From Candidatus Poribacteria bacterium (GTDB lineage Bacteria > Poribacteria > WGA-4E > PCPOR2b), in contig OZ242351.1 in NCBI GenBank assembly GCA_965208675.1, positions 3,104,001-3,168,000 of the forward strand: a stretch of 64,000 nucleotides of DNA, given 5' to 3'. The position numbers were made by a program, and so were the translations under genes. The notes below the pieces were generated by a model that saw only the letters and a list, made by a program, of their open reading frames with translations, had not been told where the DNA came from and searched no databases. How positions within the stretch are numbered: position 1 is the first letter of the stretch; every line of letters begins with the position of its first letter. This document shows positions 27,752-47,929 of this stretch, one piece after another.

Positions 27752-28102
27752 CTAAAATGATGCGCTATCACTCTTATGATGAGGTCTGCCCTGTGCATCG
27801 AAACCAGAGACAGAAGCGTATGCAGAACCGCTTGAGCAAGTGCCATCTTCTCGGTCTACGACTACTGAAGTAGAAACCCGATTATCTGCGAAATCGTCAT
27901 GGTCTTCCTTTTCTTCACTATCAACACGAGCGTACAGATAGTAAGAACCATCATAAAGAGCGTGATTATTAATTGATGCGGTTGCTTTACACGTATCCGC
28001 ATTCGCGGTACAGTAAGCGTTATACGCATAAACACTGACGCAAACAATTCCAATTACCAACACCAAGAAACTACTCAACATAACCAACGTTTTGCATTTC
28101 AT
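27752..28102 (-). CDS. Cassette protein B1: small secreted beta-rich protein
   Basis: AAGGAG RBS; signal peptide ending VSVYA; paralogue of 32701..33048 and 46357..46779 (SSGSAYASVSGFDA). Confidence 0.85.
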   Translation of the reverse strand: MKCKTLVMLSSFLVLVIGIVCVSVYAYNAYCTANADTCKATASINNHALYDGSYYLYARVDSEEKEDHDDFADNRVSTSVVVDREDGTCSSGSAYASVSGFDAQGRPHHKSDSASF

Positions 28103-28121
28103 GATAATCTCCTTTACTTTT

Positions 28122-28895
28122 TTAGTCATTAAAAACAGTTGCAGGATCGTATCCTGCATCGTCGTAATCAACAAAATTTATGCCAGGGAACTTCGTCTTG
28201 TAAGCCCCTGACAAAATTTCTTGTTCCGAAAAAAGCTGCCCATCACTATCGACTAATTGATTCACTGTGTCCGTAGCCCCAAGTCTACGCTTGATAAACG
28301 GCACTTCTACGAATTGTCCATCAGGACTTACACGAACATAACTAGCCCACTTAAGATACACCACGTCTGGATAGATCGGGTACACCTTTCCCGATTTTGA
28401 CTCTGAGAAACCGCTTATAAAATCTCGGTCTCCCCGATTCCATAATTCTATCAAGACACGGTAAAGTCTAACGTGGTTGGAAAAATCGCGCTCGTGAAAA
28501 TAGTCTTTGAGCCACACCGGAGTGACGGGAAACCCTTCAGGAACTTCAGGGAAATCCTTCCCTTCTTCCTGTTCAAGAGCGGAATGCTCTTCAACAAGTT
28601 CGTTCCGTTCTGCATTTTCAATTTCATCCGAGTCGGATGTCGATACAACATCATCGGATAATCCCCCATCTGACACCAAATCTGTTTCTAAGTCCGATGG
28701 AGTGTTTTGAGAAACAGAAGCGCGGACAGGGTGATTCGTGCTTACGGCGTGCGGCCCGTCCGACAGCAGGTGTTCTGGAAGAGGTTCCACATTGGGGCCA
28801 TGGAGCCAGCGGCTTCCGAAATAGCTGCCCACAATCAATAGCGCGGAAATCAAGACTGATCCGCATATTATCAGTTTCTGTCTAATCGTAAACAT
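28122..28895 (-). CDS. Cassette protein A1: membrane-anchored protein with conserved unknown C-terminal domain
   Basis: TM followed by GSYFGSRWLHG; acidic linker; FPEVPEGFP..PVWL, RVLIELWN.GD and VYPIYPDV shared with A2 and A3. Confidence 0.85.
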   Translation of the reverse strand: MFTIRQKLIICGSVLISALLIVGSYFGSRWLHGPNVEPLPEHLLSDGPHAVSTNHPVRASVSQNTPSDLETDLVSDGGLSDDVVSTSDSDEIENAERNELVEEHSALEQEEGKDFPEVPEGFPVTPVWLKDYFHERDFSNHVRLYRVLIELWNRGDRDFISGFSESKSGKVYPIYPDVVYLKWASYVRVSPDGQFVEVPFIKRRLGATDTVNQLVDSDGQLFSEQEILSGAYKTKFPGINFVDYDDAGYDPATVFND

Positions 28896-28998
28896 CGATA
28901 TCACCTTCCTCACTCTGTCAATCCTTGGTTGAGAGAAATTTATGTGACCACTGCGGACCGTTCCGCAGTTCAAAGTGTTGCTTAATGGCTATCTTATA

Positions 28999-29014
28999 AG
29001 CAAAATATGTGCCA
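28999..29014 (-). promoter_or_regulatory. sigma54 -24/-12 promoter (cassette copy 1)
   Basis: TGGCACATATTTTGCT. Confidence 0.85.
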
Positions 29015-29140
29015 AGACGAATATTTCCCCGCAATTCAAGCTCCGTTTTGGACTGGGAAGCCTGATGTGTAAAGGGATCCGGGCAGTTAAATTTTTTTTC
29101 GGTCGAGAGTAACAGCGATTGGATTGGGTAGGCAAAGGGG

Positions 29141-29227
29141 CGCAACTTATGTTGACACAATTCGGGAAAATGGTGAACGAAGCCTTGCCACACAAGGGTT
29201 TTACGGGATGTGCAACAATAGTGGACA
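29141..29227. promoter_or_regulatory. Putative enhancer (bEBP binding) sites, copy 1
   Basis: 17-mers CGCAACTTATGTTGACA (29141) and TGCAACAATAGTGGACA (29211). Confidence 0.6.
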
Positions 29228-29328
29228 ATAGCAACAAATTTTGCATCCCTTTGGAATGAGGGGTTTTCGGTAGGTACGGAGGGTAAATAAAGATTTGGAG
29301 TGCTGAACTGAAGGAATTAAACGATGAT

Positions 29329-30762
29329 TTACGCATCGTCCGATGATGTTTTGGAACGGTTCAGACGCTTGTTCAGCGCCTGCCTCGTCATGCCCAATAG
29401 TTGGGCGGCAGTGGTCTGGTTTCCGTTGGCGCGTTTGAGGGCTTCAGCAACTGCAAACCGCTCGATGTCTTTCAACTTGGGAAATCTGCGCAACTCGGCT
29501 AACTTCTCCACAATTTCAGCTTCGCCGGTATCACCCGCATCAAGGGAAAGGTCAGATTCCCCACCAATCTTCTTCCGGAAAGATTTAATAGAAAGAACGC
29601 CGCCCTTGTACTGACTTGCCGCATCTAGTACGAATCCTTCTAGCTCTCTGACATTTCCCGGAAAATCGAAAGCCTCAAGGTGTGTTAGGAGTTCCGGTGC
29701 AAGGGTACTCATGTCCTCTCCTAGAGTCTCGGACGCATGCGCTAGGAAGTGTTCAACCAATAGCGGGATATCCCCCGCCCGCTCACGAAGCGGCGGCAGG
29801 TGAATATGATGAGTTTGCAAGCGGAAGTAGAGGTCGTTGCGAAAAGTTTCGGACTCTCTCAGGAATTGTATATCTCGATTCGTCGCAACAACTATTCTTG
29901 CGTTATTTGTTCGCGGAAAATCGTCGCCAAGCGGGTAGTAAGTTCTTTCCTGCAGAAGACGCAGCAGTTTGACCTGAGACTCCAGGCGCAGGTCTCCGAT
30001 TTCATCAAGGAAGAGCGTACCGTTTGACGCTTGTTCAATCAATCCCTTGCGAGGCTTATCCGCCCCAGTGTACGCCCCTTTTTTGTGGCCGAAAAGCGTG
30101 TCCGAGAATAGGTGGTCGTCGAGCCCCGCAATATTGACCGAAACGAAGTCACCCACCCGCCCGCTCAACTTGTGGATTGCCGCTGCAATCAGTTCCTTGC
30201 CAACTCCGGTTTCGCCCGTAATCAATACTGGCAGGTCGGTTTGGGCGATTGCCTCGGAATATTGAAAAATGGCGTGCATGCCGCTGTCTTGAGTAATAAT
30301 GTCAGAGAACGCTTCAGGTTGTTTCAGCGCGTCAGAAAACACACGCTCCTTTAGCAGGCGAGTATGGCGACGCAGCTCGCTCATTTCTAGTCCGCGCCGA
30401 ATCGTCGCCGTGAGCTCCGTGACATCCACCGGTTTCACGAGGTAATCGTACGCCCCGGTCTTCAGACATTCCACGGCGGTGCCCACGTCTTTTACGCCCG
30501 TGACAACCGTTACGGGGACGTCTGGAAAGTCGGCAAGAATCAATTGAAGCAGGTCTTTCCCTGATAAATGAGGCATCATCAAATCCAGCACCACAACCGA
30601 GAAGTCATCCTTTGACAGCGTAGACATAACTTCGCGGCTGTCACCGCATTGGACGACACGATTGATGCCCTCTGACCTAAGCGCACGGCTCGTACTGGCA
30701 AGAAAAAGTTCTTCGTCGTCAACGAGTAATATTGGACGGGTAGGAAACTGACTTGTATTCAC
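29329..30762 (-). CDS. NtrC/AtoC-family sigma54-dependent response regulator (REC-AAA+-Fis HTH)
   Basis: LLVDD, VVLDLMMP, GETGVGKE, LFGHKKGAYTGA, LFLDEIG, FPGNVRELE, GNQTTAAQLLG. Confidence 0.95.
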   Translation of the reverse strand: MNTSQFPTRPILLVDDEELFLASTSRALRSEGINRVVQCGDSREVMSTLSKDDFSVVVLDLMMPHLSGKDLLQLILADFPDVPVTVVTGVKDVGTAVECLKTGAYDYLVKPVDVTELTATIRRGLEMSELRRHTRLLKERVFSDALKQPEAFSDIITQDSGMHAIFQYSEAIAQTDLPVLITGETGVGKELIAAAIHKLSGRVGDFVSVNIAGLDDHLFSDTLFGHKKGAYTGADKPRKGLIEQASNGTLFLDEIGDLRLESQVKLLRLLQERTYYPLGDDFPRTNNARIVVATNRDIQFLRESETFRNDLYFRLQTHHIHLPPLRERAGDIPLLVEHFLAHASETLGEDMSTLAPELLTHLEAFDFPGNVRELEGFVLDAASQYKGGVLSIKSFRKKIGGESDLSLDAGDTGEAEIVEKLAELRRFPKLKDIERFAVAEALKRANGNQTTAAQLLGMTRQALNKRLNRSKTSSDDA

Positions 30763-30765
30763 TGA

Positions 30766-32403
30766 TTACGCTCCGACGGCGGCAGGCAGCTTGACTGTCG
30801 CCCTCGTGCCCTTTCCAAGTTCTGAGGCGAAGGTCAAATCTCCGCCATGATTCTTGATAATAGTGTAAGAGATTGACAGCCCTAGGCCGGTACCTCCGGT
30901 GTCACGCTTGGTAGTGAAAAAGGCGTCCATGATGCGACCTAAATTTTCAGGCGGAATTCCTTCTCCCTCGTCGCAAACTTCAATCAATACATCGTTTGAA
31001 CGCTTTCGGGTCGAAACCGCGATTTTTTTGCTCGGGTCGGACAGCGATTGGCAAGCGTTCGTGACTAAGTTAATAAATACCTGCTCAATTTGTTGCGCAT
31101 TACCCTGAATCAACGGCAAGCCGCAATCCAATTCGAGCGAGAAATGGTTTGTAGCGTTTTTTATCAAATTCTCTATAATCAACATTGCAGCGTTAATCAC
31201 CGCATTGCAATCAACCGATTGTTTTAATTCTTCGTCTCCGCTTTGCGAAAAATCGCTGAGCGCGTTCACAATCTCTTGGATTCGCCTCGCCCCGCTAATC
31301 ATTCCCGTAGTCATGTCCTTGATATCAGTATTTAATTTCGTATAGGGCTCTCCAGCGCACATAAAGTCCCCATTCTCGTGGTAATACCTCTCTAGGATGG
31401 GCATTACGGCCAACCAACATTTCTCAAGGACTTGTCCGTTCTGCAATATAAAACTGTTCGGGTTGTTAATCTCGTGCGCCACGCCGGCGGTCATGACGCC
31501 CAATGACGCCATCTTATCCGCTAGAATCAACTGGCGCTGCTGCTGCGCAGATAGTTCCTCGGCACGCTTGCGTTCCGTGATGTCCAGCGCAAAGCCCGCT
31601 ACGCGGTAGGGTACGCCGTTCTCATCGTCCACTGGAAAGGCGCGCGCATGAATCCAACGGATTTCACCATCCGGACGCACCATACGGAACTCATACTCCA
31701 CTGAATCGCCGAGTTTCTGACGCTCAAAATGAGCAATAACCTGCTCTATGTCATCCGGATAGATGCTCTCCACCCACGACATCGGCGCTGCCATTAAGTC
31801 CATGCGGGATCGTCCCCATATCTCATCGTATCCGGGGCTGAGGTAGAAAAACTCGTCCCCTTCGAGCGACATTAGCCAGAACACCTCGCGGATGCTGGTC
31901 GCCAACTGGTGAAAGCGTTCTTCACTCGCTCGAAGGTCACGTTCAGTCTCCTTCTGCCGCGTGATGTCCCGCCAAATGAACCGGCAGTAAAGCGCCTTTC
32001 CTCTTGTATTACGGTAAGTTGCGGCATTTAAGTTTACCTCCAACGTACTTCCATCACTCTTCCGCAATACTAGCTCCGCATCACGTATTGTACCGTCGCT
32101 TACAAGGCTAGCGAAGGCTTTCTTTGCACCTTCGACACTGTCCGGATGATATATCTTCGAAATAGGGTGGCCGACAATCTCCGCTTCTGCATAACCCAAC
32201 GCCGTGCATAACGCCTCATTGCAGTGGAGAACCCTTTCCGAGACGGCATCAGCAGAAGCAAACATGTCCGGGCCGTTGTAATATGGATCTGCCTCCGACA
32301 TCCGCTTGAATTTATCTCTATCGCGCTCTAACCTCGCCACTTGCTGGCGCAACCGCCGTATTTCGCTATTTCGTTGTGATTGTTTCCCATCTTCCGCTTG
32401 CAT
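30766..32403 (-). CDS. Cytoplasmic PAS-PAS sensor histidine kinase
   Basis: Two PAS/PAC domains ending DIT; AGVAHEINNP H-box; N-box NLVTNA; FFTTK and GTGLGL; no TM segment. Confidence 0.95.
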   Translation of the reverse strand: MQAEDGKQSQRNSEIRRLRQQVARLERDRDKFKRMSEADPYYNGPDMFASADAVSERVLHCNEALCTALGYAEAEIVGHPISKIYHPDSVEGAKKAFASLVSDGTIRDAELVLRKSDGSTLEVNLNAATYRNTRGKALYCRFIWRDITRQKETERDLRASEERFHQLATSIREVFWLMSLEGDEFFYLSPGYDEIWGRSRMDLMAAPMSWVESIYPDDIEQVIAHFERQKLGDSVEYEFRMVRPDGEIRWIHARAFPVDDENGVPYRVAGFALDITERKRAEELSAQQQRQLILADKMASLGVMTAGVAHEINNPNSFILQNGQVLEKCWLAVMPILERYYHENGDFMCAGEPYTKLNTDIKDMTTGMISGARRIQEIVNALSDFSQSGDEELKQSVDCNAVINAAMLIIENLIKNATNHFSLELDCGLPLIQGNAQQIEQVFINLVTNACQSLSDPSKKIAVSTRKRSNDVLIEVCDEGEGIPPENLGRIMDAFFTTKRDTGGTGLGLSISYTIIKNHGGDLTFASELGKGTRATVKLPAAVGA

Positions 32404-33060: not shown

Positions 33061-33687
33061 TTAATTTTGGTAGTCAATAAGAATTGCCGCAGGTTCGTAC
33101 CCGGCGGTTTCGGCGTTTACAATGCTTATGCCGGGGAACTTCGTCTTAAACGCCCCTGACGTTATTTCTTGATCTGTAAAAAGCCTGTCGTAGCTATCGA
33201 CCAACTGATTTACCGTGGTTGTGGCGCCAAGCCGACGGCGAATAAAAGGCATTTCAACAGATTTTCCATTAGCCGCTTGAAGTGTATAACTATCCCACCA
33301 GACATATATCACGTCCGGATAGATTGGGTAAACTCTACCGCTACGAGTTTCAAATATAGCGTTCAAAAAGTCATGGTCGCCCTGATTCCATAATTCGATT
33401 AGGACGCGGTACATTGTTACGTGGTCCGAAAAATCACGCTCCTGAAAATAGTCTTCGAGCCACACCGGCGTCATCGGAAATCCGTCAGGCACTTCAGGAA
33501 AATTACTGATATTTCCATCTTCTCGTTCAACTGACGAGTCTTGAGAAACACGTAAGTCAGGTAATGGTTCACTATTCGTGCCATGCACCCATCGGCTTCC
33601 GAAATTGCTGCCAATCACTATCACCACAGCAAACAATAATGCGCCGCCCAACAAGAGTGTCTGTTTTCTCGTAAACGTGGTTTTCAC
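33061..33687 (-). CDS. Cassette protein A2 (short linker)
   Basis: GSNFGSRWVHG, FPEVPDGFP, RVLIELWNQGD, VYPIYPDV. Confidence 0.87.
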   Translation of the reverse strand: MKTTFTRKQTLLLGGALLFAVVIVIGSNFGSRWVHGTNSEPLPDLRVSQDSSVEREDGNISNFPEVPDGFPMTPVWLEDYFQERDFSDHVTMYRVLIELWNQGDHDFLNAIFETRSGRVYPIYPDVIYVWWDSYTLQAANGKSVEMPFIRRRLGATTTVNQLVDSYDRLFTDQEITSGAFKTKFPGISIVNAETAGYEPAAILIDYQN

Positions 33688-33762
33688 CCTTCCACCTCCG
33701 TCATTTCAGAGAAACTTATGTGAGTGCTGCAGACCGTTCTACAGCTTGTAGTATTGTCTATA

Positions 33763-33778
33763 TGCAAAAGACATGCCA
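33763..33778 (-). promoter_or_regulatory. sigma54 -24/-12 promoter (cassette copy 2)
   Basis: TGGCATGTCTTTTGCA. Confidence 0.8.
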
Positions 33779-33903: not shown

Positions 33904-34020
33904 TGCGACATTTGTTGACACAATTAAGGGAAATTTGGGGTTCCCGGAGCGTGAAGCCTTACCATACAAGGGTTTTGCGAGCTGTGCGACAAAAGTTGAC
34001 AAAAGCAAAAAATGTCGCAC
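33904..34020. promoter_or_regulatory. Putative enhancer sites, copy 2
   Basis: TGCGACATTTGTTGACA (33904), TGCGACAAAAGTTGACA (33985), TGTCGCAC (34013). Confidence 0.65.
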
Positions 34021-34703: not shown

Positions 34704-36089
34704 TTACCGCCGTTCGTCAGAAAGCCGAGTACCCGGCATGGCATAGTATTCGCCATTTGTCACTTCGGCGACTCGGCGCTGAAAGACATCCCTTTCGCGT
34801 TGCCGCGGGTGTACGAAACCGCCGATGACGTAAACAATGGCACCGGCTTGGCGGCAAACATCAATTCCCCCGCCGGGGGTGTACCCCTTCTCCCGACGGC
34901 GGCTGGTTGCTTCGTCGGTTACGATAATCAGTACAAGCTGGCGATGCTCTGGCGTGTCGAGCTTGGGGACGCCTTCCATTATGGCGTCGAGCAGGTGTTC
35001 ATCGCCCTCCTTCGGAAGCCGAAATAGCTTCTTGACCTGCTCGGCATCCAACGGCGGTTTCGTCACCACCATTGAGCTTTCTCCTCCGCCTACCCGCGCC
35101 CAAAAGCGGATGACACCGAAACGATAGTCGAGTCCGTTCTCATCAAGCGCATCCGCCAACCTATCCACTCCTGTACATATTTCATCAGTATTAAATCCCA
35201 TGCTGAAGCTGGAGTCGAAGATGAAAACAATATCGGAAGGCGACTTCACCGTTTCGACGAAGTGTTCGCCCATGAGTTCGAAAATCCCGGCGATCCTGAG
35301 AATCCGCTTATCTGTCATAGAGGTTGGCCACCTTCGCTGCTGATATTCATCAATGGGGCGCCACTTGCCTCCGGTTTCCTCAGCCAATTTCATCTGAACC
35401 GCATTATTTACCCCAAAAACGTCAATGTGAATCTCCTCCTGCTTACACTGTTCAACAATTTTACTTGCAAGCTGCTGTATAGCATTCTCCGCGTCCCACG
35501 TGGTTTGCAGGGGCGAATTTGTGACGACAATCAAGTGTTTGCGGGCGTCCAATCTGTAATCCAACTCCCTTAACCCCCACATTATCGCGTCAAGTCCATA
35601 TCCGGTGGAGTGGTCGTGCCGAAAATCGTCGTAAAGGCCTTCATGTACTGCACGCAGGCTGTCAATGAACGGACTGCCTTCGAATTTTGGGCCTCGATGA
35701 TTTTGAAACCAGACGGGCGCTATCTGGTAGTCGACTCCCGACTCCTCGAACATACCCACTAATTCGCCGAGATGTCTTTCAATTTGAACTATCGACGTTT
35801 TCATTTTTTCGCCGCGTTCGATGACAAAGACGATGTCAACCAAGTTATTCTCACTTTGACGGCTGGCGCGGCGAGCGATGCCGACAAGGCTTCTGCCGAC
35901 ATTTACCTTGGTTACTTCCGTTTCTTCCACTTTCGATTCTTTTTTTGGGTTAATCATGATTTTCGATTGCCGGCGCGGCGGTTGGACTTGCGCCCCAGCG
36001 AACGCTGCTAATGCATCAACGACTATCCAGATAGTCAACACCATCAAAGCAATCCCCGATTTCGAGGTGTATCGTTTCAATACAATCAT
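34704..36089 (-). CDS. Secreted or membrane-anchored double vWA-domain protein 1
   Basis: DIVFVIE (degenerate MIDAS) and DIVFIFDSSFSM (DxSxS), IVTDE, VYVIG; AAAGGAG before ATG 36089. Confidence 0.85.
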   Translation of the reverse strand: MIVLKRYTSKSGIALMVLTIWIVVDALAAFAGAQVQPPRRQSKIMINPKKESKVEETEVTKVNVGRSLVGIARRASRQSENNLVDIVFVIERGEKMKTSIVQIERHLGELVGMFEESGVDYQIAPVWFQNHRGPKFEGSPFIDSLRAVHEGLYDDFRHDHSTGYGLDAIMWGLRELDYRLDARKHLIVVTNSPLQTTWDAENAIQQLASKIVEQCKQEEIHIDVFGVNNAVQMKLAEETGGKWRPIDEYQQRRWPTSMTDKRILRIAGIFELMGEHFVETVKSPSDIVFIFDSSFSMGFNTDEICTGVDRLADALDENGLDYRFGVIRFWARVGGGESSMVVTKPPLDAEQVKKLFRLPKEGDEHLLDAIMEGVPKLDTPEHRQLVLIIVTDEATSRRREKGYTPGGGIDVCRQAGAIVYVIGGFVHPRQRERDVFQRRVAEVTNGEYYAMPGTRLSDERR

Positions 36090-36187
36090 TGGATTTTCTC
36101 CTTTCTTGCTGCGCCCAAGTCTAAATTGTGAATGACCGATTGAACTGACTAACCCAACCGACAAGAACGGAAACGTATTGTTCGGTG

Positions 36188-38392: not shown

Positions 38393-38422
38393 TGGAATAA
38401 TCCTCAATATTTCCAGAATAAT

Positions 38423-39486: not shown

Positions 39487-39614
39487 GTGAAACCTCCATT
39501 CATTTGTGTGATTTTTTTCAGTCTTAGGAAGTAACGTTCTAACTAGGAATGAAAAGAGTAACACTTTCATTGATTAATCCTCTTTAATTGTTGATAGACT
39601 TTTTATTGCAAATC

Positions 39615-40457
39615 TCAATGCAATATGTTCGCCTTAATGGAGCCCCAAGCAACCGCAGATTGCTCATTGGGATGAACTGCCAACCCTAATCCCCGTTTAA
39701 TGCCGCCTTGAAAGTGCGCAGTAATCTCGTCTTCGGTGAAGGCCCGTTTCGCAATTAGGACTTCATCAATAAGGCCATCCAGCCAAATGTCTTCTTCCGC
39801 AAAACCGATGGTTACCGGTGCGTTAATGGATCTGGGAGTGAAATCATCCGTTATATTCGATGGTATCCTAAACCGCGCAACTTGTTTGCCATCCAAGTAA
39901 ATTGTGTGCTCTTCGCCCCAACTGCGTGGGAATCGGTCACGCACTATAGCAACCTGATGCCACGTCTGAGGCTGCACTTCCCAAAGGAAGCTTCTGCCGA
40001 AAGACGCACCGCCGGCTCCATCTCCGACAACTTTGAGGATGTTTAACGTTGGATTCCCGTGTAAACTGTATCCAAGAATCCACTTGTCTAAAAACCCGGG
40101 GCCTTCATCTTGAGCGATGAACGCGTGTCGATGGCCGAATAGGGTTTCATTCATGTTGATCCACATGGCAATTGTGAAGTCTGATTCGTACAGCTTCAGA
40201 CTTCTATCTTTGCCGACATCGACATAACCATCCGGCTCCACTTGAATTGCATTTCCAAATTTACCCGCCTCCCATTTTGCGTTCTGCTTCAGTATGCCGT
40301 GGTTTCCGTGCCGAGAGAGGTCTTTGGTAATTTCCCCTCTGCCTTCATCAAACGGCAAGGCAAGTACAATGTCTCTGTCGACGACTGATTCGGCTTCTCC
40401 AGAGTAGAAAGCGGCGACGAACGCGGTTATCAGTAGAGCTGAAACTAAAGTTTTCAT
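39615..40457 (-). CDS. Secreted LamG/concanavalin-A-like jellyroll protein
   Basis: LPFDEG, DLSRHGNHG, GKFGNA, FTIAMW, WHQVAIV, YLDG, GLIDEV; terminal LAVHP..AVAWGSIK motif. Confidence 0.9.
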   Translation of the reverse strand: MKTLVSALLITAFVAAFYSGEAESVVDRDIVLALPFDEGRGEITKDLSRHGNHGILKQNAKWEAGKFGNAIQVEPDGYVDVGKDRSLKLYESDFTIAMWINMNETLFGHRHAFIAQDEGPGFLDKWILGYSLHGNPTLNILKVVGDGAGGASFGRSFLWEVQPQTWHQVAIVRDRFPRSWGEEHTIYLDGKQVARFRIPSNITDDFTPRSINAPVTIGFAEEDIWLDGLIDEVLIAKRAFTEDEITAHFQGGIKRGLGLAVHPNEQSAVAWGSIKANILH

Positions 40458-40538
40458 TGGTAATTCCTCCTTCATAACATTACTAGCAGACATGTTTCCA
40501 ATCAGGTTCTAAATTGTGTATTGACTTTTTAATATCTT

Positions 40539-41342
40539 TCACACTTTATCATTTAAAAGGTACGATTTCATCACTGCTTTGAGGTTGTTCGATCTCGAAA
40601 GCCAACCGGGGAGAGCACTCGCATAAAAAGAATTTTGCTTTGCTAGAGTTTTTAAGAATTCGCGCTTATGAAAATCAAACTCCAAGAAAACCTTCCACGC
40701 ATATTCCGGTTCCTCTTTCAGTGCTGCGTCAATGTTATTGTTGAATTTCTTGACTGCTAAGGCGGTACGCGTTTTCCAAATTCCATCCGGTTCCACATTC
40801 ACCAGTTTCTGAATAACCCGTGTCGCATTCGCACCCGCAAGCGTAGCAAAATCTGCATATCCAGCTTGCAAGCTCGGATGAACGTCCCAGCAATTATAAC
40901 GTTCAAAATAATCTCGGTAAAACCTCTTTATTACCTCCAGATTTGCATCGGTCAAAGCCAGTGCATCTTGACTCGTGTTTGTGCGCCCTAAGCGGATTAC
41001 ATTTGCGGGCAGGTGCGCTTTATCACCTTGTTTATTCCGCCATTCCATCCACGCGACAGCCGTTATGCCCGCGTAAGAAACCCCGCCAACATGTGCGGGT
41101 TCATGGATATTCAGCCCGGTTTCATGCCTCAGGATGAACCTTAAAGCAACATCTCGTGAAAGAGACGCGTGGACAAGGCTATTCATTTTGGCAAATTGCA
41201 GATCGTTCGACAATAATCGTTCTGGTACAGCTTTCATATCGCGGCCATTGAGCCAGCGGATTCCGAAATAACCGCCTGCAATCAATAGCGCTGAAATCAA
41301 AACCGATCCGCATACCAACAGTTTTTGTCTAATCGAGAACAT
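40539..41342 (-). CDS. Cassette-A N-terminal anchor fused to a GH108 (ZliS/TtsA-like) muramidase plus peptidoglycan-binding domain
   Basis: N-terminus MFSIRQKL..GGYFGIRWLNG equals the A-family anchor; FILRHETG...GGVSYAGIT, DFATLAG, IQKLVNVEPDGI and GWLSR match the GH108/PG_binding_3 pattern. Confidence 0.75.
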   Translation of the reverse strand: MFSIRQKLLVCGSVLISALLIAGGYFGIRWLNGRDMKAVPERLLSNDLQFAKMNSLVHASLSRDVALRFILRHETGLNIHEPAHVGGVSYAGITAVAWMEWRNKQGDKAHLPANVIRLGRTNTSQDALALTDANLEVIKRFYRDYFERYNCWDVHPSLQAGYADFATLAGANATRVIQKLVNVEPDGIWKTRTALAVKKFNNNIDAALKEEPEYAWKVFLEFDFHKREFLKTLAKQNSFYASALPGWLSRSNNLKAVMKSYLLNDKV

Positions 41343-41444
41343 TAACATCACCTTCCTCACTCTATCAATCCTCGCTTGAGGGAAATTTATGTGAGCACCG
41401 CGGACCATTCCGCAGTTCAAAGTGTTACCAATGGCTATCTTATA

Positions 41445-41460
41445 AGTAAATTGTGTGCCA
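41445..41460 (-). promoter_or_regulatory. sigma54 promoter (copy 3, -12 variant)
   Basis: TGGCACACAATTTACT; same position relative to the UTR hairpin as copy 1. Confidence 0.55.
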
Positions 41461-41734
41461 ATCTGAATACGCTCACGCTATTAGCATACGCCATTGTCTA
41501 TCTTTACTTGGAACCTCTCAAGGCAATTAGTAGTTTGCAGTCGTCTTACGATATATAACCTGCAACCTAGGATTTTGCCTTTTTAGGTACCGCTTAATTA
41601 TCTTGCGAAAATATCTATGGGTCTTGCGTTTAGCGTTCAAGTCGTCACCCCCGTTTAGTTAACCTTTTTTAGTGAAGCCCATGTAGTATCGAACGTTAAT
41701 TTTTTCACCAGGATAATGCTGCTAGTAGGTCTTA

Positions 41735-41831
41735 CGTACTGCTACCGGCTCCACATAGTGGAACCGGCGACTTCCGAAATAGCTGCCGCAATCAATCCGC
41801 ATAGCAACTATTTCTGTCTAATCGTAAACAT
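41735..41831 (-). pseudogene. Remnant of a cassette-A gene
   Basis: ATG TTT ACG ATT AGA CAG AAA TAG (MFTIRQK*), then frameshifted GSYFGSRRFH..VEP. Confidence 0.8.
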
Positions 41832-41936
41832 GGACATCACCTTCCTCACCCTGTCAATCCTCGCTCTTGCGAGAAATTTATGTCACCACTGCGGACCGTT
41901 CCGCAGTTCAAAGAGCTACTTAATGGGTATTTCATA

Positions 41937-41952
41937 AGCAAATTGCGTGCCA
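41937..41952 (-). promoter_or_regulatory. sigma54 -24/-12 promoter (copy 4)
   Basis: TGGCACGCAATTTGCT, near-perfect consensus. Confidence 0.88.
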
Positions 41953-42077
41953 AGACGAATAACCCCGTACAATTTAAGCTCCGATTTGACTCGGAAACCC
42001 TTGTGTGTCAAGGGATACGGGCAGTTAATTTTTTTCAGACTGAAACGGCAGCGTCCTGACGGGGCAGGCAAAGGGGG

Positions 42078-42195
42078 TGCAACATTTGTTTACAAAAATC
42101 GGGAAAATTGGGGGAAAAATAGCGCGTGAAACCTTGCTAGGTAAGGGTTTTGGGGGATGTGCGACAAAAGTTGACAAAAGCAAAAAATGTCGCAC
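42078..42195. promoter_or_regulatory. Putative enhancer sites, copy 4
   Basis: TGCAACATTTGTTTACA (42078), TGCGACAAAAGTTGACA (42160). Confidence 0.65.
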
Positions 42196-42315
42196 CCTAT
42201 TTTGAAGACGGAAGCGTCAGCGGACACGGCGGAATGATACAAAATGGAGCAGGAATTGGGTGCTATGGTACGCAAACTCACCTGTATTTCGGATAACTGA
42301 AAGGTGAAAGCTCTT

Positions 42316-42510
42316 GTAGGTTGGGTAGAGATCAACTGAGCGAATAGCGAAGGCGATAGTCTTATCCGTACCGCCTCCAACAAACCGAACTCGCCGCAAT
42401 ATCCAAAAGCGTTGGATTGGTTGAATTCTGGTAGGCGGGAACTCCAATTCCCGACTGTATGTCTATAACCCCCTCTAGCTCCCCCTTGGTAAGGGGGAGG
42501 ATTTTTCTGT
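42316..42510. repeat. REP-like composite repeat
   Basis: Near-identical to 34463-34640. Confidence 0.8.
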
Positions 42511-42570
42511 ATCATTCCCATGTGCAATTGATCTTGACAAATTAACGCATTAAAATCCCTGCGTTCGCGG

Positions 42571-43947
42571 TTACCATCGTTCGTCAGAAAATTGAGCATT
42601 TGGCAGGGCATAGTGTTCACCTTTTGTTACCTCAGGGGCGCGTCGCTGAAAGACATCCCTTTCGCTATGCCGCGGATGTTCATAACCGCCAATGACATAA
42701 ACAATGGCACCGGATTGGCGGCAAACGCTAATCGCCATATCCGGTGTGTATCCCCTCTCGCGGCGGCGGCTGGTCGGTTCATCCGTTACGATCATGAGGA
42801 CAAGTTGGCGATCCGCAGGCGTTTGAAGCTTGGGGACGCCTTCGATAATTGCATCGAGCAGGTGTTCATCGCCTTCCTTCGGCAGCTGGAATAACTTCTT
42901 GACCTGCACAGCATCTAACGGCGGTTTCGTCACCACGATTGAGCTTTCTCCCCCGCCTACTCGCGCCCAAAACCGGATAACCCCGAAACGATAGTCGAGT
43001 CCTCCTTCATCTAGGGTTTCCGCCAAAACATCAAATCCACCGCAAATATCTTCGACATCGGCTTTCATGCTAAAGCTGGAATCGAAGACGAAGACGATAT
43101 CGGCAGATTGCTTCGCCGCCGGAATCATGTGTTCGCCAATGAGTTCGAAAATCCCGCCAATTCTTTGAATCCGCTTATCCAAATATGAGGGTGTTCTTCG
43201 TACCTGCTGGTATTCGTCAACTGCGTACCACTTCCCGCCGGTCTCCTCCGCCAACTGTAGTTGCACGGCTTCATTTACCCCAATAACATTGATGTGAACA
43301 TCATCCTGCACACACCGCTCAATTATCTGATTGGTACGTTGCTGTGTTGCATTTGGTGCTTTCCATGCCGTCTGCAACGGGGAATTTGTGACGACAATCA
43401 TGTGCTTGGCGGCATCCGATCTGTAGTTCAACTCCCTTACCCCCCACATCATCGCCTCAAGTCCATATCCGGTCAAATGACTGCCTCGAAATTGTGTGTA
43501 GAAACTATCCTGGATAGCACGAAAGTCGTTCCTGAATTCGCTGCCCTCAAATTTTCCACCGCCCTGATTTTGAAACCAGACTGGCGCTATCCGGTAGTCG
43601 ACCCCCGACTCCTCGAACACACTCACCATATTGTCAAGCTGTTCTTCAATCTCCGCAATCGCCGCTTTCATCGTCTCGCCGTGTTCAATGACATAGACGA
43701 AATCAACCATCTTTTCCTTACCCTGACGGCTGGCGCGGCGTGTAATGCCGAGGAGGCTTTTACCAATATTAATCTCTGTTTTCTGCGCTTTTGCCTCATT
43801 TTTTGGACTGACCATAACTCGCCGCTTACGGCGCGGCGGCTGCACTCGTGCTTCGGCAATCGCTGAAAACCCATCAACACCAATCCAGATTGTCAGCATC
43901 ATTAAAGCCATTCCAGATTTCAATTTGACTGGTTTCAACATGTTCAT
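42571..43947 (-). CDS. Double vWA-domain protein 2
   Basis: Paralogue of 34704..36089 (DIVFVFDSSFSM, FGVIRFWARVGGGESS, SDERW); AAGGAG before ATG 43947. Confidence 0.85.
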   Translation of the reverse strand: MNMLKPVKLKSGMALMMLTIWIGVDGFSAIAEARVQPPRRKRRVMVSPKNEAKAQKTEINIGKSLLGITRRASRQGKEKMVDFVYVIEHGETMKAAIAEIEEQLDNMVSVFEESGVDYRIAPVWFQNQGGGKFEGSEFRNDFRAIQDSFYTQFRGSHLTGYGLEAMMWGVRELNYRSDAAKHMIVVTNSPLQTAWKAPNATQQRTNQIIERCVQDDVHINVIGVNEAVQLQLAEETGGKWYAVDEYQQVRRTPSYLDKRIQRIGGIFELIGEHMIPAAKQSADIVFVFDSSFSMKADVEDICGGFDVLAETLDEGGLDYRFGVIRFWARVGGGESSIVVTKPPLDAVQVKKLFQLPKEGDEHLLDAIIEGVPKLQTPADRQLVLMIVTDEPTSRRRERGYTPDMAISVCRQSGAIVYVIGGYEHPRHSERDVFQRRAPEVTKGEHYALPNAQFSDERW

Positions 43948-44065
43948 TGATGCACTCTCCTTCCGTTCCGCTCTAGTCACGGCGGGTTACACTGCAATTC
44001 TCCCTGGCCGTAGCGACGAAATTCTGATTTTCGAATTACTGGTTTATCACTCCTACGGTACGGGC

Positions 44066-46267
44066 CTACTTGACAACCACCATCCGCCGTGTCGAGCTGT
44101 GATCGCCCGCCGCGAGTTGAATGTAATACGTTCCGCTTGTGACGGGTTCTCCGTTTTGGTTGCGGCCGTCCCAATGCGCTGCGCTGGCTTTGTCTCGGTA
44201 GACGCCCGATGGTTGATGCCCAATGTCGAGGGTGCGGACGATATGACCGCGCTGGTCGTAGATGCTAAAGGTTACGACCGAATCGTCCGCCAACTGATAA
44301 GGTATCCAAGTCTCCGGGTTGAACGGATTCGGATAATTTTGCAGCAACGCTGTCCGTTTGATGTTTCCCAAGGTTGTTATGCGTCGTTCCGACGGTTCCA
44401 CCGCTAATTGGATTGAAGACTCAACTTCCCACAATAACACCGTGCCGTCCTGACTCCCGCTCGCCAGTGTGCGTCCATCAGGACTGAACGCCACGCTCTC
44501 GACCGGAGCTGTATGCCCTTTGAGTGTCCGCCGGTGTTTTCCGGTTTCAATGTCCCACAGTCGGATAGTATTGTCCTCGCTTCCACTAGCGATGGTCTCT
44601 CCATCGGGACTGAACGCCACGCTCTCGACCGGAGCTGTATGCCCTTTGAGTGTCCGCCGGTGTTTTCCGGTTTCAATGTCCCACAGTTGGACCGTACCGT
44701 TGATACTTCCGCTAACGATGGTGTTTCCATCGGGACTGAACGCAACACTTTCGACTTGAAGTGCATGCTCCATGAGTGTTTTCAGGTGTTTTCCGGTATC
44801 AGCGTTCCACAGCCGGATGGTATCGTCCTTGCTTCCACTAGCGATGGTTTTTCCATCGGGACTAAACACAACACTTAGGACGAACCATTCATGCCCCTTG
44901 AGCGTTTGCTGATGTTCTCCGGTATCGGCGTTCCACAGCCGGATATCTTCCCAATTCCCGCTAGCGATGGTCTTTCCATCGGGACTAAACACAACGCTGG
45001 AGACCCAACCTGAGAGCGTTTTCAGGTGTTTTCCGGTATCAGCGTTCCACAGCCGGATGGTATCGTCCAAGCTACCACTGGCGAGTATGTGTCCATCGGG
45101 ACTAAACGCTACACTGTCGACCCAATCTGTATGCCCCATGAGTGTTCTCAAATGTTTTCCGGTATCAGCGTTCCACAGCCGGATATCTTCCCAATTCCCG
45201 CTAGCGATGGTCTTTCCATCGGGACTAAACGCAACGCTTTCGACTGGAGTTGTATGTCCCATGAGTGTTTTCAGTTGTTTTCCGGTATCAACGTTCCAAA
45301 GGCGGATGGTACCGTCCAAACTCCCGCTGGTGATGGCGGTTCCATTGGGACTAAACGCCATACTTTCGACGCAAGTTGAATGCCCGGTGAGCGTTTGCTG
45401 GTGCTCTCCGGTATGAGCGTTCCACAGTTGGATTTCATCCCAATTCCCGCTAGCGATGGTCTTTCCATCGGGACTGAACGCAACGCTGGAGACCCAATGC
45501 CTATGCCCCTTGAGCGTTTTAAGAGTTTTCAAGTGTTCTCCGGCATGGGCGTTCCACAGGCGTATGGTATGGTCCCCGCTCCCGCTAGCGATGGTTTTTC
45601 CGTCGGGACTAAACGCAACGCTTGAGACCCAATCTGTATGCCCGATGAGCGTTTGCTGGTGTTTGCCGGTATGAGCGCTCCACAAGCGGATGGTGCTGTC
45701 CCGACTCCCACTCACGATTGTGTTTCCGTCGGGACTGAATGCAACGGTTTCGACCCCATCTGAATGCCCGTCCAACGTTCGCTGGTGTTTTCTGCCAAAT
45801 GTGTTCCACAGGCGGATGGTACCGTCCTTGCTCCCGCTAGCGACGGTTTTTCCATCGGGACTAAACGCAACGCTTGAGACCCAATCTGTATGCCCCTTGA
45901 ATTTTTGCTGGTGTCTTCCGCTATCAGCGCTCCACAGGCGGACGGTATTGTCCACGCTTCCACTAGCGATGGTTTTTCCATCGGGACTAAACGCAACGCT
46001 ACTGACCGAATGCATATTTCTAGTGAGCAGAGCAACCTCTTGATGAGTCGCCGTATCGTAGAGCCATATTCCGATACTGCTGGCAACCGCAAGGCGGGTG
46101 CCGTCGGGCGAATACTGTATTTCATTTATCACACCTTTACCGAGGCGCGCTTGGGCGCCCTTGGGCAGCCCCCATAGCGGAAAATCTTGGGCGCCGCCGG
46201 GCGGTACGCACAGCACGGAAATAAAAAAGGATAATAGGCTAAGCTTGAAAATCATTGCTTTCTCCAA
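44066..46267 (-). CDS. Secreted WD40-repeat protein 3 (14 repeats) with C-terminal FlgD-Ig-like domain
   Basis: Same architecture as the other two; alternative ATG at 46255. Confidence 0.93.
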   Translation of the reverse strand: MEKAMIFKLSLLSFFISVLCVPPGGAQDFPLWGLPKGAQARLGKGVINEIQYSPDGTRLAVASSIGIWLYDTATHQEVALLTRNMHSVSSVAFSPDGKTIASGSVDNTVRLWSADSGRHQQKFKGHTDWVSSVAFSPDGKTVASGSKDGTIRLWNTFGRKHQRTLDGHSDGVETVAFSPDGNTIVSGSRDSTIRLWSAHTGKHQQTLIGHTDWVSSVAFSPDGKTIASGSGDHTIRLWNAHAGEHLKTLKTLKGHRHWVSSVAFSPDGKTIASGNWDEIQLWNAHTGEHQQTLTGHSTCVESMAFSPNGTAITSGSLDGTIRLWNVDTGKQLKTLMGHTTPVESVAFSPDGKTIASGNWEDIRLWNADTGKHLRTLMGHTDWVDSVAFSPDGHILASGSLDDTIRLWNADTGKHLKTLSGWVSSVVFSPDGKTIASGNWEDIRLWNADTGEHQQTLKGHEWFVLSVVFSPDGKTIASGSKDDTIRLWNADTGKHLKTLMEHALQVESVAFSPDGNTIVSGSINGTVQLWDIETGKHRRTLKGHTAPVESVAFSPDGETIASGSEDNTIRLWDIETGKHRRTLKGHTAPVESVAFSPDGRTLASGSQDGTVLLWEVESSIQLAVEPSERRITTLGNIKRTALLQNYPNPFNPETWIPYQLADDSVVTFSIYDQRGHIVRTLDIGHQPSGVYRDKASAAHWDGRNQNGEPVTSGTYYIQLAAGDHSSTRRMVVVK

Positions 46268-46356
46268 TCGTTAAATGCGGTGGTCAGTGTCCAGTTGCCA
46301 GCAAATGCTATTCACTGGCAACTGGACACGCGTTTTCGCGTAGTGATGCGTTGTTT

Positions 46357-46779
46357 CTAATCCTCGCCTTCTGGCGGAGTGATTACGTGCGATGTCTTTT
46401 CACTAAACGACTTTCTAGTTGCATTGTACCGCACGTCATGTGTTCGTTTATGATGCCAGTTATGCACATCTCTACCACTCACATAACCACTTGCACTGCC
46501 GCTCTTATTATCCGCTCCTCCCATGGAAACGGATACACTCGCTACCGTCCCGGGGTGGATAGTGTCACTATCACTATCGGATTTATTTCCAATACTAACT
46601 GACGCTTTGACTGTTCCGGACACAAGCCCAGTGCTGTTCGCTCCGCCAGTTAGCGAAATGGTTCCAGCAGTCGCATTGCGGCTCCCGCTAGCCCAAGCGT
46701 TATACGCACTTACGCTAATACAAACAATTAGGGAGGTAAACACAAAAATACTCAACGTGACCAACACTTTCACTTTCAT
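46357..46779 (-). CDS. Cassette protein B3 (divergent, no Cys in mature region)
   Basis: AAGGAG RBS; signal peptide CISVSA then YNA; SGSASGYVSG matches SGSAYASVSG of B1/B2. Confidence 0.82.
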   Translation of the reverse strand: MKVKVLVTLSIFVFTSLIVCISVSAYNAWASGSRNATAGTISLTGGANSTGLVSGTVKASVSIGNKSDSDSDTIHPGTVASVSVSMGGADNKSGSASGYVSGRDVHNWHHKRTHDVRYNATRKSFSEKTSHVITPPEGED

Positions 46780-46797
46780 GGTATTCTCCTTTTTGTT

Positions 46798-47580
46798 TTA
46801 GTAGTCGTTAAGAACAGTTGCCGGGTCATAACCGGCATCACTGTAATCAACAAAGGTTACATCGGGATGCATCGTCACATAAGCGCCCGACATTAATTCT
46901 TCCACTGTAAAAAGATTCCCATCTTCATTGAGTAATGGCTCAACCGTGCTTGAAATACCAAGTCTGTAGCTAATATACGGCACCTCAAGCGACTCTCCAT
47001 TGAGGTTTTCACCAACGTAACTATCCCACTCAACATAAACCACATCGTGATAGATTGGGTACACCTTACCGGTATCTTCATCAAGAACACCGTATACAAT
47101 TTCGTGGTCTCCCTGATTCCACAATTCTATCAAGACACGGTCAATTATCACATGGTCGGCGTGAAGAATCTCGTCAAAAAAGTCTTCGAGCCAAACTGGT
47201 CTAATGTTTGATGGAAACCCTTCAGGCACATCAGGGAAATTCTTCCCTTCATCCTTTTCAAGTGAGGACAGGGTGTCAGCAAGAGTCGTTGACTCGTCAT
47301 TGCCAAGAAAATCTTGCAGAGTTTCCGACTCTTCATGAGTGATGTTGTTTTGCCCCGGTTCGAGTTGTGATTCAGACATTGATGGGGCATCTTGAGTAAC
47401 AGAAGCGCAGGCAGGACAATTCATCTGTCCGGCATACCGTTTGGCAGTCAACAGGTGTTCCGGCACGGGATTCACATCCGGACCATGTAACCAGCGGCTT
47501 CCGAAATAGCTGCCTGCAACCAGTAACACCGCGAACAAAACTGTGGCGCCCACTACAAGTCTCTGTTTACTCGTTAACAT
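46798..47580 (-). CDS. Cassette protein A3
   Basis: GSYFGSRWLHG, FPDVPEGFP, RVLIELWNQGD, VYPIY, AGYDPATVLNDY. Confidence 0.87.
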   Translation of the reverse strand: MLTSKQRLVVGATVLFAVLLVAGSYFGSRWLHGPDVNPVPEHLLTAKRYAGQMNCPACASVTQDAPSMSESQLEPGQNNITHEESETLQDFLGNDESTTLADTLSSLEKDEGKNFPDVPEGFPSNIRPVWLEDFFDEILHADHVIIDRVLIELWNQGDHEIVYGVLDEDTGKVYPIYHDVVYVEWDSYVGENLNGESLEVPYISYRLGISSTVEPLLNEDGNLFTVEELMSGAYVTMHPDVTFVDYSDAGYDPATVLNDY

Positions 47581-47671
47581 TGTTATCACCTTTCTACCGC
47601 TGTCTCTTCTTGGTTGAGAGGAATTTATGTGACCGCTGCAGACCGTTCTGCAGCTTGTGATATTGTCTATA

Positions 47672-47687
47672 AGCAAAATACATGCCA
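47672..47687 (-). promoter_or_regulatory. sigma54 -24/-12 promoter (copy 5)
   Basis: TGGCATGTATTTTGCT. Confidence 0.82.
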
Positions 47688-47812
47688 ATACATATAGTCA
47701 CCGTCATTTTAGGTGCGGTTTTGGCGAATAAACCCTGATGTATCAAGGGATACGGGCAATTTTATTTTTTTTGGTTAGGGACGGCATAGCTTTGAATGCC
47801 TATGGCAATGGA

Positions 47813-47929
47813 TGCGACATTTGTTGACACAATTGAAGGAAATTTGGGGTTGCCGGCGCGTGAAGCCTTGCCACACAAGGGTTTTGGGGGATGTGCGACA
47901 AAAGTTGACAAAAGCAAAAAATGTCGCAC
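47813..47929. promoter_or_regulatory. Putative enhancer sites, copy 5
   Basis: TGCGACATTTGTTGACA (47813), TGCGACAAAAGTTGACA (47894). Confidence 0.65.

Follow-up and report, generated by a model that had tools for sequence, protein, structure and literature searches.

An island in the chromosome of a Candidatus Poribacteria bacterium carries one DNA module, reaching from enhancer sites through the first ~60 codons of a membrane-anchored protein here called A, that has been copied six times within 52 kb. The window studied (i.e., the whole 64,000-nt stretch, positions 3104001-3168000 of a single-contig genome of 4.89 Mb) holds five of these copies, all on its minus strand, and the sixth, an orphan, lies 4.8 kb outside it. 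Judged from sequence, each intact copy would head an operon, and the island is a predicted sigma-54-driven regulon of extracytoplasmic proteins. What is new is A, a large and expanded family that has been seen only in Poribacteria and is unnamed in the libraries searched.

The module consists of an enhancer block, a -24/-12 promoter, an 8-bp hairpin in the untranslated region (UTR) and a ribosome site. Three window copies lead into a pair of genes, A and B (the latter encoding a small exported protein), one leads into a fusion of the A anchor to a GH108 domain (A'), and one is a dead 5' remnant (Table 1). When aligned, the five upstream regions have a mean column identity of 70%, with TTGGCA, the 18-nt hairpin and a GGTGA ribosome site invariant, and a repeat finder recovers the module as families D4, D7, D13-D18 and D20 (60-90% identity). 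Both results agree with the first-pass annotation, which had described a recurring minus-strand unit with five promoter/UTR copies. Two module lineages exist, one comprising A1, A', the remnant and the sixth copy, and the other A2 and A3, whose upstream DNA is 88-90% identical (families D15 and D20). Read along the minus strand from high to low coordinates, the island is organized as (1) enhancer, promoter, A3, B3, WD40-3 and VWA-3; (2) enhancer, promoter and the dead A remnant; (3) promoter, A' (anchor plus GH108), a LamG protein, a 302-aa protein, WD40-2 and VWA-2; (4) enhancer, promoter, A2 and B2; (5) a PAS kinase and a sigma-54 activator; and (6) promoter, A1, B1 and WD40-1.

A sigma-54 type promoter of the form TGGCAC-N5-TTGC (GG at -24, GC at -12, fixed spacing) is present in four of the five window copies. 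The TGGCA-N7-TGC pattern proposed earlier for the unit thus stands for four copies and misses the one before A' (41460..41446), which has TTAC, not TTGC, at -12 and no long enhancer block. The bare TGGCA-N7-TGC motif is not significantly enriched in the window (6 matches vs. 2.35 expected, with 3 of 100 shuffles reaching 6), and the promoter case therefore rests on the long conserved flanks. Farther out, 130-240 nt upstream, sit repeated 17-mers and a palindrome that are putative activator sites and copies of one block. The 17-mer TGTCAAC-N3-TGTCGCA has five exact matches genome-wide, all upstream of A2, the remnant and A3, and the palindrome TGCGACA-N21-TGTCGCA, built of 17-mer half-sites, occurs at three genome sites, all in the island. 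The A3 enhancer block is 90% identical to that of A2 (D15); because the sites copy one another, their uniqueness provides no independent functional evidence.

Downstream of the promoter, none of the eight pairs of the UTR hairpin is broken in eight sequences (five from the window, three from the same genus), and two pairs carry compensatory changes, although with only two lineages in the set these amount to one or two events. The hairpin represents no described RNA family, since Rfam returned no window match at gathering scores. As for the regulators, -24/-12 promoters require a bacterial enhancer-binding protein, and one had been reported in the island; the activator encoded at 30762..29329 indeed has a sigma-54 interaction domain (PF00158, 1.9e-56) and is accompanied by a PAS kinase. 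The genome also contains rpoN, scoring above its cut-off, and about 19 full activator genes.

Protein A has one N-terminal inner-membrane helix, a flexible acidic linker and a 145-aa alpha/beta domain in the periplasm. Specifically, its structure model places a helix at residues 7-30, followed by a disordered acidic linker and then a confident domain (in A2, predicted local distance difference test [pLDDT] above 90 over residues 61-208) made of one long helix, four strands, two of them of 12 residues, and short helices. The other two island copies are 59% and 50% identical to A1. An alignment of 177 family members has the same layout: 154 carry an N-terminal hydrophobic anchor, 3 a lipobox and 20 neither (probably truncated calls), the linker has a median length of ~94 aa (21% acidic, 7% basic residues), and conservation falls on Y-P-x-V-P, a W, R-V-L-I-K-L-W-N-Q-G, G-x-V-Y-P-x-Y, Y-V-x-W and D-G. 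Model and alignment together bear out the transmembrane anchor, variable acidic linker and conserved domain noted previously. The membrane helix starts at residue 7-8, leaving 6-13 residues in the cytoplasm and none in the lipoprotein forms, which adjoin anchored forms in relatives; since such lipoproteins exist, the A domain should be extracytoplasmic, i.e., periplasmic.

Neither A nor B had been recognized as a known family, and this was upheld by every library searched. For A1-A3 no family was found in Pfam, NCBIfam (E <= 0.1 or 0.01), PADLOC or PHROGs, and the PDB profile search was empty; B1-B3 likewise had no Pfam, NCBIfam, PHROGs, PADLOC or PDB match. Foldseek returned no match for the A model at E <= 0.001 (best 0.34 in the PDB and 0.088 in BFVD); its query was the whole model with helix and linker, which lowers template modeling (TM) scores and should not hide local matches. 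In the ESM Atlas the A domain reached at most 0.86 and B at most 0.78, both short of the 0.9 lead level, and no match had a useful name. The 177 members contain no invariant acidic, His, Cys or Ser residue. Because the A domain has neither a fold match nor a conserved catalytic-type residue, we consider it a binding module and not an enzyme. The same lack led us to reject A as a cell-wall enzyme, a role suggested by analogy with the GH108 swap, and a type IV pilin was rejected for both A and B, given the missing G/F-x-x-x-E leader and the disordered linker after the helix.

The family is widespread in the phylum. It comprises 47 close proteins and, more broadly, 453 clusters at 50% identity (289 of them at E <= 1e-10), and it occurs in 132 of 176 Poribacteria genomes and 3 of 11 families, with up to 15 matches per genome. 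Within these three families it is found in 26/28, 10/11 and 95/112 genomes, and in 0/24 genomes of the other eight. All 76 A loci among 185,579 species genomes carry Poribacteria titles, and the few members with a source name are all annotated as "hypothetical protein" of Poribacteria. No fused or longer form was seen among proteins of 483-2000 aa, which is weak evidence. In its own genome A is confined to the three island genes. One of these has changed its start: A2 (33679-33690) reads ACG in place of the ancestral ATG and starts instead at a GTG that lies three codons farther upstream, within what used to be the ribosome site, so that the protein gains three N-terminal residues and an upstream GGAGG is used.

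B is, according to its model, a Sec-exported, generic seven-strand Ig-like beta-sandwich: a signal helix is followed by seven strands (pLDDT 86.6), and Foldseek gives weak generic FN3/ApaG-type matches (best E 5e-3, TM ~0.35, none at E <= 0.001). Measured on the three copies, the mature protein has 89-115 aa with 40-49% Ser+Ala+Gly+Val, matching its earlier description as a Sec-exported protein of ~90-115 aa rich in these residues. The other two copies share 57% and 34% identity with B1. Close homologues number 14, and in its own genome B occurs only in the island apart from a B-like remnant elsewhere. Two known types were considered for B and set aside: a PliI/PliG-type lysozyme inhibitor, as the S-G-x-x-Y stretch is not kept in B3 or in the B-like proteins of other families, and a PEP-CTERM protein under a PrsR-type activator, as B lacks a C-terminal sorting signal and the activator scores 310 bits against a TIGR02915 cut-off of 502.6.

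The two genes are closely spaced, with intergenic gaps of 19, 12 and 18 nt for A1-B1, A2-B2 and A3-B3, and modeling supports binding between their products. The A-B complex score of 0.71 (the median of 0.71, 0.74 and 0.45) compares with 0.00 in three controls, the runs agree in at least 88% of contacts, and partner pLDDT is at least 82; the mark for this score is reached by 58 of 80 solved complexes and 2 of 110 mismatched pairs, counts that hold only roughly here given our own alignments. On the B side the predicted interface involves a conserved G-L-V-N-G turn and a variable segment, residues 64-86, and on the A side the N-terminal motif, the helix and two strand edges. The adjacency of A and B, which was to be checked in related genomes, does recur there. 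Of 29 loci from other genomes, 16 have a B-like open reading frame (ORF) immediately downstream of the best A, one more locus has B just upstream of A, and in another the next ORF is B-like below threshold, so that both orders, A-B and B-A, occur; in a further set of divergent A loci, a profile recovers B at just 2 of 60. This leaves two possibilities: B does not partner the A family in general, or its sequence has diverged beyond detection.

The fourth product of the module shows that the anchor can carry something else. As the first-pass annotation had supposed, A' is a domain-swapped A: its A1-like anchor (79% DNA identity to A1; family D4) is joined to a GH108 domain scoring above cut-off (PF05838, 33.2 bits vs. 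21.2, 7.6e-8), with a PF09374-like tail below cut-off (0.0059, 17.2 bits vs. 24.6). The protein matches the endolysin family phrog_315 at 2.9e-12 and has, by eye, a Glu in an N-terminal H-E-T-G stretch; GH108 activity is predicted from the profile only. It resembles GH108 muramidases and phage endolysins in these matches and in its N-terminal membrane helix, but differs in the ~30-residue linker between helix and enzyme and in its setting, a chromosomal sigma-54 cassette in which no holin or phage genes were seen. Short-read contigs from three runs of a single sample are identical to 39500-41611 and 41670-42343, across the fusion junction as well, which, as they come from the same sample as the genome, is a check on the assembly only; a run of a second study covered 8 of 30 bins of 39500-43000, mostly repeat elements, and is uninformative on the cassette. 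In relatives the anchor module joins two further, unmatched C-terminal domains, and it behaves as an exchangeable N-terminal module. Specifically, the anchor and a juxtamembrane motif, G-x-Y-F-G-x-H-W-Y-Y-G, stand before C-terminal domains lacking a Pfam match at L053 1572-2276 and 3812-4483 and at L043 7971-8804.

What had been called an A pseudogene has a promoter, a UTR and the start of the anchor, and is a mere 5' remnant of ~100 nt: it opens with ATG at 41831, reaches TAG at codon 8, has a 22-nt deletion in the anchor, and loses homology after ~100 nt. The sixth copy is a promoter and hairpin without an ORF behind them (genome position 3,099,198, minus strand). Its region, about 3,098,900-3,099,500 and 4.8 kb to the left of the window, faces the 3' end of a convergent gene, and the copy could be a source of antisense transcript or a relic.

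Elsewhere in the same genome, a soluble GH108-like gene comes after each of two extracytoplasmic function (ECF) sigma genes, of which one is truncated (genome 3,884,198-3,885,750 and 3,894,666-3,895,925). These ECF sigmas are 52-53% identical to the ECF sigma preceding A in a same-genus genome, the GH108-like products are 28-29% identical to the swapped domain of A' (E 2e-28), and a B-like remnant without a signal peptide (profile E 7e-9) follows one of them. Taken with the sigma-54 cassette of A', these genes indicate that the A domain and GH108 take the same position downstream of either type of regulator. Also beside these genes are transposase-like ORFs and two secreted protein families that alternate in arrays.

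Comparison with other Poribacteria drew on 60 further A loci, picked by hand from the phylum match list and thus a non-random set in which long contigs were favored. A strict -24/-12 motif was found at 20 of 68 first-of-run A genes (-300..+150; chance 0.003 per window), and 30 of the 60 loci have an activator gene within ~5 kb, associations well above those predicted by chance; the three such activators scanned all have AAA+ at their very N-terminus and lack a sensor domain. The sigma-54 motifs sought upstream of A in related genomes thus recur in other families of the phylum, which is stronger evidence than the repeated sites of the island. In a second family, the same layout is found between the activator gene and A, with repeats upstream, then a short palindrome, an A-tract and TTGGCAT-N5-CTTGCT, and with a UTR hairpin whose sequence is different, and in a third the upstream repeated site differs while the -24/-12 motif is the same. 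In two genomes A comes directly after an ECF sigma gene, in one of them at a distance of 7 nt. The order of genes, kinase and activator included, is similar in a same-genus genome. Genes for WD40 proteins with the sorting-type domain stand after A or A-B in this genome and in two families of the phylum, two C-type lectin genes follow an A cassette in one genome, and in another family A is succeeded by arrays of lipoproteins that match nothing known. The unit is therefore wider than A plus B, and A is often present as one transmembrane-anchored and two lipoprotein copies. One genus combines a sensor-less activator and a sigma-54 motif with an anchored A of ~230-260 aa and a pair of A lipoproteins of ~175 aa each, and no B-like gene was detected there (L053 and L077; by ORF sizes also L057, L062, L069, L072, L076 and L081).

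We hypothesize that the module specifies a regulated periplasmic tether and its partner, made together with bulky secreted binding proteins, a reading that we hold tentatively and that could well be right without being probable. In such a scheme a dedicated activator would switch the module on, the A domain would capture B in the periplasm to yield a tethered A-B pair, and pairs would be cognate because the contact uses the most variable loop of B. Capture of B by A, and the occurrence in relatives of the same domain as lipoproteins encoded beside the anchored copy, suggest a tether or bridge. This tether would be co-produced with WD40 proteins bearing a sorting domain and with lectin, LamG and VWA proteins, and in one copy a tethered muramidase would replace the A domain, a swap which suggests that the module acts at or near the wall. 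Its role would most likely be local envelope remodeling, or the holding and presenting of partners during export of the co-made proteins. The earlier proposal that A is a foldase or anchor, or else an immunity protein for B, is consistent with the predicted A-B binding, which is the common core of these roles, and nothing separates the three; likewise, no result marks B as the fiber or surface subunit or the secreted antimicrobial that had also been suggested.

Several results weigh against this tether-and-partner reading. The complex score is a model confidence and not a measurement, B was found in so few of the divergent A loci, and "binding module, not enzyme" has the absence of conserved catalytic-type residues as its sole ground. 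The strict motif is missing from 48 of the 68 first-of-run A genes, some A genes follow ECF sigma genes, and in the window itself the -12 element before the muramidase fusion is defective, transcription start sites and the pairing of activator with promoter are predictions from sequence, and the island-only enhancer sites, being mutual copies, mark the module and do not prove binding. Finally, the genome encodes 54 proteins with a TIGR04183-type sorting domain (all three island WD40 proteins included) against three A genes, and WD40 genes lie within ~5 kb in only 12 of the 60 loci, so a general role of A in exporting sorting-domain proteins is unlikely, and we rejected A as general export machinery for them.

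Among described systems, the Lif/lipase pair is similar to A-B in that an N-terminal anchor, a variable linker and a periplasmic domain serve a co-encoded, Sec-exported protein, with binding in our case predicted. The Lif foldase is built entirely of helices; the A domain is an alpha/beta structure that includes long hairpins and has no Pfam foldase match, B is an Ig-like sandwich and not a lipase, and A is a multi-copy family that often lacks B. TonB/TolA tethers share with A a short cytoplasmic start, a long flexible linker and a small C-terminal alpha/beta domain, as well as propeller proteins nearby; in contrast, A has no TonB_C or TolA match, its linker is acidic and not proline-rich, and no ExbBD/TolQR genes were noted in the island.

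Other readings account for part of the same evidence. The pair could be of a toxin-immunity or bacteriocin type, with B an antibacterial acting in the periplasm, A its tethered or lipoprotein immunity protein and extra A copies orphan immunity genes, which we regard as unlikely. Binding of A is predicted to occur through the most variable loop of B (residues 64-86), A outnumbers B (B-less tandem runs; arrangements such as A-B-A-A and A-A-A; up to 15 A matches per genome), and both gene orders are seen. Moreover, as in polymorphic toxin/immunity loci, a conserved N-terminus has exchangeable C-termini, here including a cell-wall hydrolase, alongside a small partner gene and tandem extras. Yet B matches no toxin family or fold, the cassette proteins have no secretion or delivery domain, no outer-membrane export route or delivery machinery is encoded nearby, and the commonest C-terminal domain lacks a conserved catalytic-type residue. 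Immunity proteins usually show far less conservation than the A domain, which keeps long invariant motifs in 177 members, a dedicated sigma-54 activator per cassette is atypical of immunity islands, and the scarcity of B at divergent loci again counts against a toxin. Much the same low probability attaches to an envelope-stress or host-defense response of phage-shock type, in which activators or ECF sigmas would sense damage (e.g., host lysozyme or peptides) and A, B and the muramidase would protect or repair the wall, with B as inhibitor or shield. ECF sigmas are classic envelope-stress regulators, and here they head A cassettes in two genomes (7-nt gap in one); in relatives, sensor-less activators of the PspF type (i.e., AAA+/HTH only) adjoin A cassettes and stand, as in the phage-shock system, beside predicted sigma-54 promoters of small envelope proteins. 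Every product is extracytoplasmic, a muramidase takes the place of A in one cassette, and at other places in this genome ECF genes are followed by GH108-like genes and a B-like remnant. However, genomes with as many as 15 paralogous cassettes, each under a separate regulator, do not resemble a single stress regulon; nor did the cassette proteins scanned include homologues of PspA/B/C, known lysozyme inhibitors or anti-sigma factors, with PliI/PliG-type inhibitors outside the top 50 Foldseek matches of B, and, unlike the sensor-less PspF, the window activator has a receiver domain and a kinase, the latter cytoplasmic with PAS domains and no membrane span.

We give still less weight to a signaling partnership of the RseA/RseB kind, which we consider decidedly doubtful and in which A would be an extracytoplasmic sensor and B a ligand or co-sensor feeding back on the ECF sigma or activator. 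Anti-sigma genes usually lie directly after the ECF sigma gene, the place A takes in some genomes, and A, like RseA, is a single-pass protein with a (predicted) partner-binding periplasmic part. Sensor-less activators need a controlling partner, and the anchor and following segment are well conserved in close members and recur with other C-terminal domains. But the 6-13 cytoplasmic residues of A, absent from lipoproteins, leave no domain to hold a sigma factor or ATPase, A has no cytoplasmic anti-sigma domain, B has no MucB/RseB match, the anchor is not conserved across the wide A family, and regulation in the window already has a kinase and a receiver domain. That the repeats arose chiefly as a side effect when a single ancestral operon was segmentally duplicated and decayed, with cassettes lacking function as a set, seems very improbable: of the six promoter copies, two are dead or orphan and the -12 element of another is damaged, VWA and WD40 genes were duplicated as a block, and insertion sequence elements adjoin related cassettes, and yet three A-B pairs keep open frames at 34-59% protein identity, the A family is kept in 132 of 176 genomes, the same-genus genome retains a similar gene order with kinase and activator, and the UTR hairpin keeps its pairing via compensatory changes.

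Table 1. Features of the island in window coordinates, with the basis for each call.
Feature	Position	Strand	Basis
WD40-1, type IX secretion system type A sorting-domain match; starts 199 nt after B1	25336..27552	-	TIGR04183
B1, 116 aa	27752..28102	-	ORF, paralogue alignment
A1, 257 aa	28122..28895	-	ORF, paralogue alignment
UTR hairpin, A1	28951..28968	-	hairpin comparison
Sigma-54 type promoter, A1	29000..29014	-	motif match, upstream alignment
Enhancer block, A1	about 29100-29290	-	diverged copy
NtrC-type response regulator/sigma-54 activator (REC, AAA+, HTH_8)	29329..30762	-	domain scan
PAS-PAS histidine kinase, cytoplasmic, no membrane span	30766..32403	-	domain scan
B2, 115 aa	32701..33048	-	ORF; structure model
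A2, 208 aa, short linker	33061..33687	-	ORF; structure model
UTR hairpin, A2	33727..33744	-	hairpin comparison
Sigma-54 type promoter, A2	33764..33778	-	motif match, upstream alignment
Enhancer block, A2	33904..34019	-	two 17-mer sites and palindrome
VWA-2; with WD40-2, segmental duplicate of VWA-3 and WD40-3	34704..36164	-	domain scan, repeats D8-D10
WD40-2, C-terminal sorting-type domain	36188..38407	-	match to C-terminal domain
302-aa protein, no family; internal Met then lipobox-like LAC (by eye)	38662..39570	-	ORF, library scans
Secreted LamG-type (Laminin_G_3) protein	39615..40493	-	1.7e-16
A', A1-like anchor/linker (residues 1 to ~60), GH108, PG_binding_3-like tail	40539..41342	-	PF05838
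UTR hairpin, swapped gene	41398..41415	-	hairpin comparison
Promoter copy before swapped gene (TGGCACACAATTTAC)	41446..41460	-	upstream alignment
UTR hairpin and A 5' remnant	41720..41906	-	alignment; contigs agree
UTR hairpin, dead copy	41889..41906	-	hairpin comparison
Sigma-54 type promoter, dead copy	41938..41952	-	motif match, upstream alignment
Enhancer palindrome, dead copy	42160..42194	-	genome-wide palindrome matches
VWA-3, membrane-anchored	42571..43980	-	PF00092, 5.9e-7
WD40-3, signal peptide, WD40 propellers, C-terminal sorting-type domain	44066..46267	-	match to C-terminal domain; WD40-1 paralogue
B3, 140 aa, Sec signal, most divergent B, C-terminal extension	46357..46779	-	ORF, paralogue alignment
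A3, 260 aa, transmembrane anchor, acidic linker, A domain	46798..47580	-	ORF, paralogue alignment
UTR hairpin, A3	47636..47653	-	hairpin comparison
Sigma-54 type promoter, A3 (TGGCATGTATTTTGC)	47673..47687	-	motif match, upstream alignment
Enhancer block, A3	47813..47928	-	two 17-mer sites (47910..47894, 47829..47813) and palindrome 47928..47894

Among the neighboring genes, WD40-1 scores 24.8 bits for TIGR04183 against a cut-off of 23, and WD40-3, which starts 89 nt after B3, has its sorting-type match at genome 3148075-3148335. Between B1 and WD40-1 lies a 12-bp GC-rich hairpin with a weak T tail (27599-27628, minus strand), which could act as an attenuator of A1-B1 read-through into WD40-1. 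The VWA-WD40 pair and its downstream intergenic DNA are segmentally duplicated (34463-38400 vs. 42330-46270; 72-90% identity, spacing 7867-7878 nt), and the WD40 genes of this block have an internal periodicity of 126 nt. A spanin was considered for the 302-aa protein and rejected, the only match being at E = 0.0088 over the signal region. On the plus strand, a PhoX-type alkaline phosphatase gene with an FlgD_ig-like tail (48739-50469) adjoins the A cassettes, and such a gene is also near A cassettes in 2 of 12 and 5 of 60 relative loci, another family included (L046 4960-6690; L042 15926-17383; L074, L079, L093, L103 and L111).

Small repeats also occur in the window. A 21-nt perfect-stem palindrome (stem CTCCCCC, loop TTGGTAA) is intergenic at window positions 32529, 34316, 34612, 42479, 7348, 24810 and 24940 and has 49 genome matches at up to 2 mismatches, both strands counted. 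The neighboring segment 42308-42424 holds a very abundant small repeat element, as its summed contig depth of 1839-4757 is far above the 15-60 or so around it (three runs, one sample).

In the single-cell genomics work of 2014, poribacterial WD40 proteins are described as carrying a Por-type sorting domain, with their secretion pathway still to be revealed (PMC3909097). In this genome a 2186-aa open frame has four SprA-like matches and several ORFs are PorV-like (genome 3,220,015-3,223,692; 179,382-180,008; 4,419,852-4,420,790), all below curated cut-offs in a search for SprA and PorV; these matches bear on how sorting-domain proteins leave poribacterial cells. Among titles and abstract openings of the literature on Poribacteria with WD40 or sigma-54, there was no description of A, B or the cassettes, a scope that stops short of the supplementary tables of PMC3909097.

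The A family thus offers a confidently modeled domain that matches no solved fold, with a gene linked to dedicated sigma-54 activators or ECF sigmas and often directly preceding secreted WD40, lectin or LamG genes, which connects the family to eukaryote-like proteins. In Poribacteria, which are abundant but uncultivated symbionts of sponges, life within the host is presumably mediated by proteins of the envelope and surface. The cassettes provide defined promoters, a predicted heterodimer and a tethered muramidase as entry points that do not require cultivation of the symbiont. A bolder extension of the tether-and-partner reading, to which we assign a low probability, is that each cassette is a separately addressable switch, in which a private activator or ECF sigma, acting through private upstream sites, installs one of many alternative periplasm-spanning tethers (anchored A, lipoprotein A, B) and one alternative secreted, eukaryote-like binding protein, and that the A family is the core of a programmable system for varying the envelope. 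If true, this would amount to programmable variation of the envelope and surface of an animal symbiont, built on an undescribed fold and heterodimer.

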